Assembly (NCBI GenBank): GCA_951406725.2
Contig: OX597829.1
Location: 35,650,001 to 35,714,000, forward strand
Length of the DNA stretch: 64,000 nt
Reading direction: 5' to 3'
From: Octopus vulgaris
Taxonomy: Eukaryota
Numbering within the stretch: position 1 is the first letter of the stretch; the number at the start of each line of letters is the position of its first letter. This document shows, in pieces, positions 4,163 through 53,987 of this stretch. Made by a program: the position numbers and the translations under genes. A model generated the notes under the pieces. That model did no database searches, was not told where the DNA came from, and saw only the letters and a program-made list of their open reading frames with translations.

Positions 4163-4374
<212 letters not shown>

Positions 4375-43195: not shown

Positions 43196-46100
43196 TTAGA
43201 TAAAACTTAGATATGTTTCGACCAGAGATTGGTCCAGGCCATGTCTAACTTAATAGCACCACCTGATAGGATTATTCGAATCCTGTTTAAGTCAAGTTTT
43301 GTTCAAGTAGTGAGTTCTTGTTGGGTGAGTTGTATCCAATTATGGGTGGCTTGTCTGGTATTCTTTGAAGGAATCTATCCAGACTCTGTTTGAAGTTGAT
43401 GGGATCCTTTTCCTCTTTGATCTCCCTCGGGACAATGTTAAATAGGGCAGGGCCTGTTGAGGAAAAGAAATTATGTTGCAGTGTACATGTATGTTGTGAT
43501 CTTGAATTTGGCAGGGGACGTATAGCCCGTGGTCCAAGTCTCGGATGAACCTTGAAGCTAATGTTTAGGTCGTTTGGGCAAAGTTGGCGGTATATTTTCC
43601 ACATCGTACAAATGATGTACCGCTCACGGCGACGCTGGAGGGAGTAAAGTTTCAAGGCTTTAAGGCGATCCCAATAGTCGAGAGCAGCCATGCCTTCAAT
43701 TTGTTTAGTGAGAGCCCTCTGGGGTGACTCAATTCTGGAGATGTTTTGTCTTGTGTGAGGAGACCACAGTGGGCAGCAGTATTCAAGGTGTGGCCGTACA
43801 AAGGATGAAAAAAGTGGTATGATGACACCTTGTTCTCTGGACCGGAAAGTTCTTAAGATCCAGGAACTCATCCTACGAGCTGTATCGACCTTCTTGTTGA
43901 TGTGTGCGCTCCAACTGAGATCGTCATCAACAATTACACCCAGGTCTCTGATATTGTTAGAGGCTGTGAGCGGTTCCCCTGAAGGAAGAGAGTATGGTTG
44001 TTTTAGTGAGGAATTTCTTCCAAAATGCATCAGCTCAAATTTTCCCTCATTCAGTTGCATTTTGTTTCTGTCTGCCCATTGACTCACAGCATATAGGTCA
44101 GACTGGAGTTGAGTTCGGTCTGCTTCTTCATTGACGATTTGCTGGAGCTTAGTGTTATCAGCGAATATTTTCACTTTGCAGTGATGTACGACACTGGAAA
44201 GGTCGTTTACATAAATTATGAAGAGTAGCGGACCCAAAACAGTTCCCTGGGGAACACCGCTGGTGACTTTTGCTGGGTTTGAGTGGACTCCATCAACTAC
44301 AACATGTTGTGTTCTATTCGCTAGGAAATACTGAATCCAGTGTAGAACTTTTCCACGGATTCCAAAATTTGCCAATTTTGAGAGTAGGATGTTATGGTCT
44401 ACCCTGTCGAACGCTTTACTGAAGTCAAGGTATATGACGTCAGAGTTCGAACCTGTTCCCAAGGCTTTGAGTACATCTTCAATGTGGTGTAAGAGCTGTG
44501 TTAGACAGTCCCTGCCACAGCGAAAGCCATGTTGATTTGAATTTAGGAGTTTGTGGGTCTCCAGGAAGTCAGCTATCCTTGATCTTAACACTCTTTCAAA
44601 CACTTTAATGATGTGGGAGGTGAGTGAGATTGGGCGATAGTTGACTGCGAGGGATCTGTTTCCCTGTTTGAAAACCGGGATGACCGACTGGGATAGAAAC
44701 TTTTTCGGTATATAACCTGCGTCTAACGAGTTTCTCCAGAGGTTGGTCAGAGGGACTGCAAGTTGATATCTACATTCCTTCAGGAGACTGGCGGGAAATC
44801 TATCAGGGCCTACAGCGGAGTAATGTTTGACCTCATTTATTGCTGCTACGATGTCGGTGGCAGTGAAGGTTATGTCTGCGATTTTGTGTTGGGAGTCAGC
44901 TTCGTTCGTTTCCCTCACATCAATATCAGTGGGAACACTGAAGACAGAGCAATATTGTTTCTGCAGTATTTCTGCCATTTCTTTAGCATCGTGTTGGGGA
45001 ATGCCGTTTTCATCAATCAATGGTCCAATAGGTGAGACAGTGGTTCTATGCTTATTTGCCTAAGAATAGAACACTTTTGGGTTCTGTTTGATGTTTTTGA
45101 TTACCCATTGTTCCTCCACAGCTCTTTGATTTTCAATGGAGGTTTTCATGTTAGTCTGCAGATGAAGTTTTTCCAGCTCTAGTCTTTTCATTGTTGTTGA
45201 ATGTGGATATTGCGTGTGGGAATATTTTAATTGGTTGATTTTTTTGTTGAGTCTTTTGATGCGCCTGATGAGTGTTTTTTTCTTTTTAGGGAGCCGGTTT
45301 CTGTTTGTGTTAGTAGATTTCTTGGGAGCGTGTTTAGAGCATGTGTCGGTGACAATGGTTTCAAAGTGCTGCCACGCGGTCTCAATATGAGGGGAATTGA
45401 GAGTAAAAGACCAGTCGATGGAAGACAGATCCTTTCTGATTGTTCCCCAGTCCGCTTTGTGGAAATTTATGTTGTCAAATGGGTGCCATGGAGTGGGATT
45501 GGCTGGTTTGGTTTCTATACGTCGGGAATTAAGATTGCAGAGTACCATGTCGTGGTCTGAGAGGAGAGTTTTTTCGACTGAAATGCTGTGAACGTAGCTA
45601 GAGTGATTGGTCAGTACCAGATCCAAGATCGTTTTATTCTGTCTCGTTGGTTCAAGCACTAGCTGAGTCAGGAAATACTCATCCATCAGATTAAAGAGCA
45701 GTTCTGCTGCTGCCCTATCTGATGTAGAGCACTTGCCCAACTTCGGAGTATTTGTGGGCCAGTTCACATGAGGGAGGTTAAAATCACCCATCACTATTAT
45801 GTTTCCGGAGTGGTACTTCCGAAGAAAGGACTTGACTTTGCTAAGGCACTCTTCAAAGTACTTTAGAGGTGCCTGGGGAGGCCTGTAAAGACCAACAATG
45901 GTTATGTCCTTGGCTTTGTTGTATACTGATACCGATTCACAGTAGCCATTGGAAAATGTGTCCTTGGCATCAAGTGAAAAGGAGTCATGGATAAAGATGG
46001 CTGTCCCTCCCTTATTTCGGTCTGTGCGATCCGCACGAACAATGGTGAAATCTTTTATTTTCACCTCTGCGTCCATATGGGTGTTGTTCAGGTGAGTCTC

Positions 46101-46490
46101 GGTATATATGGCTTTCTCTCCCTTTCTTCTCTCTCTATATATCAAGTACAGAAATTAATCGTAACTCAAAGTGCTCAGTGCCATGTATTTATACAACAGA
46201 CTTTAAGAATAACATACTAAATATCCTACAAACACGCACTTGACACAACTAGGGCCGTATCACAATAACTAACTCTTCTATATAGTACCAGAAAATGTGT
46301 CAGTTCCCAAAAACTGCTGACGATCTTGAAGTTTTAATTGAAGCCCACAATTAAGTAATTTTTCTATATGTAATACAATGCTGTTGACAGACACACTGAC
46401 ATCCTGGATCGCATCTGTAGAAGGCTGCTCGGTTGATTAGCGTTCCAACACTTACGGACACACTCTCATATCTAGCCCTCAGATTTGGTT
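43191..46490 (-). mobile_element. CR1/L2-group LINE, recent copy
   Basis: APE plus RT ORF2, 3' UTR stem GACCA-ATCTC-TGGTC and short tandem tail (atctaagtttt)x2. 5' boundary uncertain. Confidence 0.85.
43287..46145 (-). pseudogene. LINE ORF2 (APE endonuclease plus reverse transcriptase) with one premature stop
   Basis: EN motifs ETHL, YRPP, MGDFN, LDLVLT, SDHD. RT motifs NYRPISLT, QHGFR, LDFSKAFD, SGVPQGTVLGP, FADN, DLGV. The two listed ORFs are in frame and separated only by TAG at 45060-45062. Confidence 0.93.
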
Positions 46491-53147: not shown

Positions 53148-53183
<36 letters not shown>

Positions 53184-53260
53184 TGCAGCGTGGAAGGTGT
53201 TTATAAGCCATTTAAGAAACACACAAAAGCCGTTCGATTCACTTCAACATTTAAGTTTAA

Positions 53261-53310
53261 TTTGTCAAAATATTTTCGTCGCTAAATTCCGCGACCTGTT
53301 CACTGACAAA
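53261..53310 (-). ncRNA. Minimal type-I hammerhead-like ribozyme with G3-C8 core
   Basis: UUUGUCA-GUGAACA-G GUCGC GGAAUUUA GCGAC-GAAA-AUAU-UU-UGACAAA. 7-bp stem I, 5-bp stem II, palindromic stem III AAUAUU. Confidence 0.7.
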
Positions 53311-53318
53311 GTCCGTGC

Positions 53319-53393
<75 letters not shown>

Positions 53394-53397
<4 letters not shown>

Positions 53398-53612
53398 CGT
53401 AGGCCTGGCTGTGTGGTAAGAAGTTTTCTCACCAGCAACATGGTTCTGGCTTCAGTTCCACTGCGTGGTACCTTGGGCAAGTGCCTTCTATTATAGCCTC
53501 GGGCACACCAAAGCCTTGTGAGTGGATTTGGTAGGCTGAAAGCAGCCCGTTGTATGAAAGTATATATGTGTGTGTGTCTGTGTGTGTCTCTGTGTGTGTG
53601 TGTGTGTGTGTG

Positions 53613-53643
<31 letters not shown>

Positions 53644-53860
53644 CTGAGTTTGTCCAGCTCCCTCTGCGCCTTTGCTTGACAACCATTGCTGGTATATTCA
53701 TGTCCCCTTAAATCTGTGGCTCGGCAAAAGAGACCGATAGAATAAGTACTAGGATTACAAAGAATAAGTCCTGGGGTCGATTTGTTTGACTTAAGTCCTT
53801 TAAGGCAGTGCTCCACCATGGCTGTAGTCAAATGATTGAAACAAGTAAAAGAATAAAAGA
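53394..53860 (+). mobile_element. SINE family B, full length
   Basis: taggcgtaggcctggctgtgtggtaag...accttgggcaagtg...gaaacaagtaaaagaataaaagaa. Confidence 0.9.
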
Positions 53861-53987
53861 ATGCACACGTATATATGTATGTATGTGTCTATGCATTCTA
53901 TGTGTGTGTATGTGTGTATGCATACAGCCATGTAAACACACACATGCTGTTCGTGAAATTTTTCCTTCTCTGGACTTTCCCATTTCA

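Follow-up and report, generated by a model that had tools for sequence, protein, structure and literature searches.

What kind of element occupies a stretch of about 140 bp in the genome of Octopus vulgaris that lies between (AT)n and (CT)n runs and carries, on its minus strand, a hammerhead-like fold whose 3-8 core pair is flipped to G3-C8? A preliminary description, made from the letters alone, had proposed a tiny non-coding retrozyme or, alternatively, a solo pseudo-LTR (pLTR). All coordinates refer to the window, the whole 64,000-nt stretch analysed (contig OX597829.1, positions 35,650,001 to 35,714,000 of the forward strand), unless a locus is named. Our reading, to which we give a probability of roughly 0.75, is that we are dealing with a short copy of a high-copy Penelope-like family's 5' end (pLTR, hammerhead motif and first 10 codons), made from an uncleaved, capped RNA template, inserted into a (TA)n target and bearing a compensatory G3-C8 pair.

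The hammerhead motif

Sequence, fold, descriptor search and pair comparison together delimit a minimal type I hammerhead motif at 53261-53310 on the minus strand, with a 7-bp stem I, a 5-bp stem II and a palindromic helix III. Stem I pairs UUUGUCA (53310-53304) with UGACAAA (53267-53261), and stem II pairs GUCGC (53295-53291) with GCGAC (53282-53278). The core GUGAACA with its G3-C8 pair lies at 53297-53303, GAAA starts at 53277, and the palindrome AAUAUU (53274-53269), predicted to pair between two copies as helix III, is followed by U17 at 53268, so that cleavage is predicted between 53268 and 53267. The preliminary description had identified the stems, core, GAAA, palindrome and UUU triplet correctly; it had omitted an extra G at 53296, between A9 and G10.1, which is a described hallmark of Penelope minimal hammerheads (PMC4209133). 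The motif thus has both stems, GAAA, an NUH triplet, the extra 9/10.1 nucleotide and the palindromic helix III of minimal type I hammerheads, and its core departs from the consensus CUGANGA with the Watson-Crick 3-8 pair kept.

The 58-nt motif folds better than expected (z -3.46; one of 200 shuffles as good); the stability of the full 142 nt is within the ordinary range (z -1.51). A hammerhead descriptor that admits any Watson-Crick 3-8 pair matched once in the window and never in 40 shuffled windows. These results bear out the earlier statement that a flipped pair with all stems intact is improbable by chance. An Rfam search returned no hammerhead at the gathering score or at E values up to 10, its matches being low-complexity miRNA only, and the two core positions off consensus would likewise suit a fortuitous resemblance. 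Against it stand the pLTR location, the extra nucleotide, the palindromic helix III, compensatory changes relative to C3-G8 families (see below) and the empty shuffled windows, and we consider a chance likeness next to negligible.

The closest published counterparts are the Penelope hammerheads of PMC4209133, which share the type I topology, the extra 9/10.1 nucleotide, G10.1-C11.1, the short palindromic helix III, U17 triplets, the pLTR location and an occurrence mostly as single or opposite-strand genomic pairs. They differ from the octopus motif in the 3-8 pair, since none of the 56 motifs in their Fig. S3 has G3 (53 C3-G8, 2 U3-A8, 1 U3-G8), and the octopus family stands apart in that its sequence is very highly conserved across thousands of copies. 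Minimal hammerheads of this kind are described there as having low activity, in dimers only, and as including U3-A8 cores. The same figure includes a Penelope-associated hammerhead from Crassostrea gigas with an identical UUU triplet, which weakens the earlier worry that UUU is a poor cleavage site; activity itself is only predicted. For helix III, the duplex prediction gives a marginal -0.2 kcal/mol, and when two motifs were cofolded as RNA the outcome was a duplex with swapped loops II, other than the active dimer. We put weak cleavage after U17, as a dimer or with protein assistance, at slightly better than an even chance.

The parent Penelope-like family

A search of the 2.8-Gb genome at the DNA level gave 940 candidates, of which 40 were scored, nearly all 99% identical. 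Exact-pattern counts gave 5,711 matches to a 21-mer over the core and 8,427 to a 26-mer downstream of it, the reversed controls giving none, which sets 8,427 as a lower bound on how often the segment occurs in the genome. The stretch had been called a unique island and its copy number left for checking; with thousands of genomic copies it is neither unique nor single-copy.

The window copy spans 53180-53325 on the minus strand and corresponds to the 5' end (pLTR, positions 1-146) of a Penelope-like family, hereafter family A, as a short, tail-less copy of a young subfamily. It is 97% identical to the pLTR of the near-full-length natural element at locus L223 (4 of 146 positions differ) and has one difference to many genomic copies, in agreement with the solo pLTR put forward earlier as the alternative. 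Positions 53211-53180 are the first 10 codons of the element ORF (MAYKHLPRCN), so the label of a non-coding element does not hold; this frame, downstream of the motif, runs into the RT-GIY-YIG ORF at L150, L223 and L224. The near-inverted ends noted earlier are present, with 9 of 11 positions paired between 53312-53322, the 5' arm of a predicted closing stem, and 53184-53194, its 3' arm just inside the tail-less 3' end (both on the minus strand). Transposon terminal repeats were rejected as an explanation, given that 51 of 95 sampled copies run about 60 nt past the 3' arm.

Some copies extend upstream through a UTR of about 1 kb into a GIY-YIG frame. The frame at L055 is 1,025 aa long and contains the RT motifs DKSG and YVDD, a CX3CX2C linker (CQSNCAVC at 896, between RT and endonuclease, which fits the pattern CX2-5CxxC), a GIY-YIG domain (PF01541, E 1.8e-5) and a C..C/H..H motif. 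Matches to the endonuclease numbered 8,294 candidates in the genome; among the 150 scored, most were 80-100% identical. At L223 the layout is an inverted truncated copy followed by pLTR, ORF and pLTR, and the two hammerheads, at 4242 and 8503, lie 4,261 nt apart. The family therefore has what is expected of an EN+ Penelope-like element, namely a single ORF with a PLE-type RT plus a GIY-YIG endonuclease at the C terminus, partial tandem pLTRs with inverted truncated copies (the L223 and L055 layouts, and an inverted partner in 46 of 95 short copies) and a pLTR that includes the first ORF codons and an optional tail. A rotifer element has likewise been described whose pLTR holds the first codons, a TATA with an Inr and, optionally, a tail (PMC3846280). 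Among named clades, Neptune/Nematis (Craig et al. 2021, PMC8557442) share the order of RT, CX2-5CxxC linker and GIY-YIG with CCHH, the (TA)n insertion bias and the inverted truncated copies. This is a likeness of layout; no named clade member was among 92 homologues. Recently active Penelope families have already been catalogued in O. vulgaris, the passages on them making no mention of hammerheads (PMC13282606).

Several other features were seen near family-A insertions. C2H2 zinc-finger frames occur on contig C28 (L222:8465-9736 on the plus strand, L222:3795-5114 and L226:126-1265 on the minus strand), and in the window a SINE-like repeat, probably an octopus SINE, adjoins the element at 53397-53870 (plus strand) and is common in the loci examined. 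Two long adjoining open frames of 590 and 364 aa at 43287-46154 (minus strand) are probably a LINE.

Copy ends and the insertion template

We mapped the ends of the short copies in the first 100 of the 8,427 exact 26-mer matches (contig C1, 0-35 Mb). Six identical composite passengers were collapsed to one, which left 95 copies, not fully independent in that 46 have an inverted partner, and 5' ends were mapped against seven references because subfamily differences otherwise distort the map. The sampled copies at L125, L183, L184, L188, L189, L192 and L211 share one inverted junction and one 3' flank, so the composite was multiplied as cargo of another repeat or a duplication.

The 3' ends fall at two places, 43 near position 146 (tail-less) and 51 near position 206 (tailed), with one elsewhere, and mostly run into (TA)n. 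The window copy is flanked at its 3' end by a (TA)n target microsatellite (53150-53179), like most sampled copies. The 5' ends are concentrated at AG|ATG, with 47 of 95 within -10 to +10 of it; 5 copies continue upstream, 27 begin at 11-54 and 14 at 64-110. At the predicted cleavage site (59 +/- 4) we found 2 of the 43 internal ends, compared with 3.9 expected, and this absence of an excess indicates that the insertion templates were not cleavage products. The 5' pile-up is 30 nt below a TATA box, TATAWAWR being present at -30 in 7 of 10 pLTRs examined; the three without the exact motif are older ones, and the TATA sits in a TA-rich repeat and could have arisen by chance.

An extra G at the 5' end of an insertion is a mark of reverse transcription through the cap, known from LINE-1 work. 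By hand count, the base before AGATG in the first 100 of 891 junctions not continuing upstream was G in 65, C in 27, T in 6 and A in 2, at a position where the element has T or C. Among 30 of those junction loci, 18 had G, 8 of which are explainable by the inverted arm, leaving 10 of 22 against a background of 17.8% (p 0.0025). In the window copy the 5' junction, G followed by AG|ATG, lies at 53323-53326 on the minus strand and is a likely transcription start; its G is possibly cap-derived, and ambiguous in that it merges with the (GA)n flank. Our literature search for cap or strong-stop products in Penelope elements found none. Fold-back to the tail was rejected as the source of the extra G, since GG would then be expected ahead of AGATG and 2 of 65 junctions have it. 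The tail end CATCTCC (element positions 199-206 at L028 and L223) is complementary to the G-AGAUG 5' end, and this complementarity, or the closing stem of the tail-less unit, may guide the RT start or the pairing of cDNA ends.

The pile-up site also resembles a 3' splice site, with CTAAC, a pyrimidine tract and YAG (TTAG or TCAG in subfamilies) preceding it, and a Penelope promoter and intron have been described (PMC2377424), the intron in D. virilis Penelope ending at helix I (PMC4209133). The short copies might accordingly derive from spliced or lariat-processed RNA in which the pile-up marks the end of a pLTR intron. We consider this unlikely, as there is no constant upstream exon (the bases before the extra G vary freely), copies begin at several positions from -5 to +10, and a TATA lies at -30, a layout of TATA and Inr being known from the rotifer pLTR (PMC3846280).

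We thus favor a capped transcript as the template. In the proposed mechanism, a TATA/Inr promoter in the upstream pLTR would start a capped mRNA at about position 1, the element protein would nick (TA)n, and cDNA would be begun at either of two internal positions, about 146 nt or about 206 nt. Target-primed synthesis on the uncleaved RNA would then reach the cap and often gain a non-templated base. A cDNA that begins at an internal site and stops at the capped 5' terminus leaves the promoter behind, and the result would be a promoter-less dead copy such as the one in the window, which is itself most likely an inert insertion. The predicted hammerhead cleavage would play no part in making the short copies; cleavage after U17 would instead take off a capped leader of 58 nt, at a point 56 nt upstream of where the ORF starts, or shorten tandem transcripts.

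Several of these properties are known from Poseidon of Anolis carolinensis, PAc (Frangieh et al. 2024, PMC11167929), in which two internal RT start sites with the tail between them, an AT-rich target, a pLTR overlapping the ORF start and uncleaved RNA as insertion template are described. The octopus family differs in a tail of about 60 nt (30-40 in PAc), in a hammerhead wholly within the 5' UTR, in having a linker Zn finger and in its natural G3-C8. The copy ends lend support in vivo to a pair of internal RT start sites and to a template that was uncleaved and probably capped.

The same data bear on the original proposal of a non-autonomous retrozyme, spreading via self-cleaved monomer or circular RNA. 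Retrozymes are known as tandem units and circles (PMC7229834, 10.64898/2026.07.22.740005, PMC6765202), and an origin of retrozymes from pLTRs has been proposed (10.64898/2026.07.22.740005). The animal non-LTR retrozymes (Cervera and de la Pena 2020, PMC7229834; Li et al. 2026 preprint) are likewise short, with a type I hammerhead and a relation to pLTRs, yet theirs are tandem, with canonical hammerheads and circles, whereas the octopus copy is solitary and of the minimal type, contains an ORF start and has its ends off the predicted cleavage site. A tandem array, for which the preliminary description suggested looking, is absent from the window, and the sampled copies are solo or inverted pairs; one array was found elsewhere, at L221:614-1952 (C28, about 4.997 Mb), where eight tail-less head-to-tail units spaced 166-192 nt apart each contain the motif. 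This is the only retrozyme-like arrangement seen, and its units are split by (TA)n of variable length and a short shared flank piece, as from local DNA duplication. Copy ends throughout the sample fit the pLTR start and the RT start sites rather than the predicted cleavage site, and the copy with its ORF start is not non-coding. We consequently regard spread as a retrozyme as very improbable, and the tiny retrozyme of the preliminary description is given up for a Penelope-like pLTR copy.

Fixation and possible function of the G3-C8 pair

We selected 65 copies that span the motif by the downstream anchor only. G3 is present in 61 and C8 in 61, C3 never occurs, and U4, A9 and U17 are invariant, so that the flip, whose fixation the preliminary description wanted checked, is kept across the family. 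Genome-wide, on the same motif scaffold, there were 6,442 G3-C8 and 4,454 C3-G8 matches. The C3-G8 matches listed belong mostly to a sister family with a protein 54% identical over 742 aa, and none of 19 double variants in family-A context was C3-G8. A comparison of nine related motifs from four apparent families, on a hand-drawn structure, showed 90.6% of cells paired and 5 of 13 pairs changing on both sides; pair 3-8 was CG in four, GC in four and other in one. The flip is a natural, family-wide compensatory change, as is shown by related motifs that have C3-G8 on this scaffold.

Natural covariation of the 3-8 pair has a precedent in U3-A8 cores (Perreault et al. 2011, PMC3088659), the only natural 3-8 variant in section 8 of that paper. 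U3-A8 takes two transitions with a tolerated U-G step, unlike G3-C8, which needs two transversions through a mismatch. Engineered G3-C8 hammerheads are partly active (PMC3884650), and the engineered C3G/G8C change partly restores cleavage in a Penelope hammerhead that is assisted by protein (PMC11167929). In the literature covered, which stops short of the largest survey (Lunse et al. 2017), we found engineered G3-C8 cores only, and a natural G3-C8 hammerhead core is apparently unreported before. With the compensatory flip the hammerhead would still be able to cut, though probably with low activity and either as a dimer or aided by protein.

What Penelope-like elements gain from the hammerhead is left open in the literature (PMC8557442, PMC11167929), and the same element could have a hammerhead that is dead or dispensable, the fold being kept as a structural or protein-binding element and G3-C8 being fixed with little or no selection for cleavage. 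The lack of an excess of ends at the cleavage site would agree with this, as would the finding in PMC11167929 that hammerhead mutants leave insertion in vitro unaffected, the Penelope hammerhead there being dispensable for it. Variants of the core point the same way. We found 268 family-A copies with the unpaired core G3-G8, the sampled ones confined to older subfamilies, about five times as many as in the C3-C8 class, put at about 49 on the basis of 17 in the first 100 out of 288, which suggests that the mismatched core was itself copied. In the sister family, young copies have the core CUGAUGC (A9C) and older ones A9. Together, the G3-G8 copies and the A9C sister copies indicate that these families tolerate core damage. 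On the other side, both family types have a Watson-Crick pair at 3-8, change at the level of subfamilies spares the core (2.7% substitutions there, compared with 7.1% in the parts beyond core and stems, a figure raised by a loop indel and by subfamily sites), and U4, A9 and U17 never vary in the 65 copies. We therefore take a dead or dispensable hammerhead seriously as a possibility and still do not expect it.

The G3-G8 copies may record an evolutionary intermediate. The young form of loop II was absent from all 25 G3-G8 copies and present in 17 of 48 comparison copies, a comparison set that leans young. A tree of 61 units (13 G3-G8 and 48 G3-C8, position 8 masked; 17 of 30 G8 loci were left out as truncated or non-family-A) was poorly resolved, with seven changes. 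A tentative and somewhat doubtful extension would be the crossing of a fitness valley, from C3-G8 through a still-transposing G3-G8 to a sweep of G3-C8, with solo pLTRs as cap-terminated, "strong-stop"-like cDNAs of uncleaved RNA. If true, it would show in vivo that Penelope insertion can do without hammerhead cleavage although such cleavage is selected in the long run, and the promoters and RT start sites of Penelope elements could be mapped from genomes only.

Under the favored reading of a compensatory, still cleavable core, a natural G3-C8 fixed in a recently expanded family is evidence for selection on the tertiary 3-8 pair in these minimal ribozymes. Standard CUGANGA searches miss the entire family, more than 6,000 motifs in one genome, and family A, its G3-G8 copies and the A9C sister family make up a set of natural variants ready for assays of cleavage and mobility.

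The sister Penelope-like family (L261-L305, for example L266:58-100) has open frames of up to 1,312 aa, and its motif, with A9C and a short stem I, is overlooked by the strict descriptor and was spotted by eye. Two loci, L290:1494-1548 and L303:1494-1546, hold hammerheads of further families that share the scaffold and have CUGAAGA, the motif at L290 being the closest C3-G8 relative of the family-A motif.
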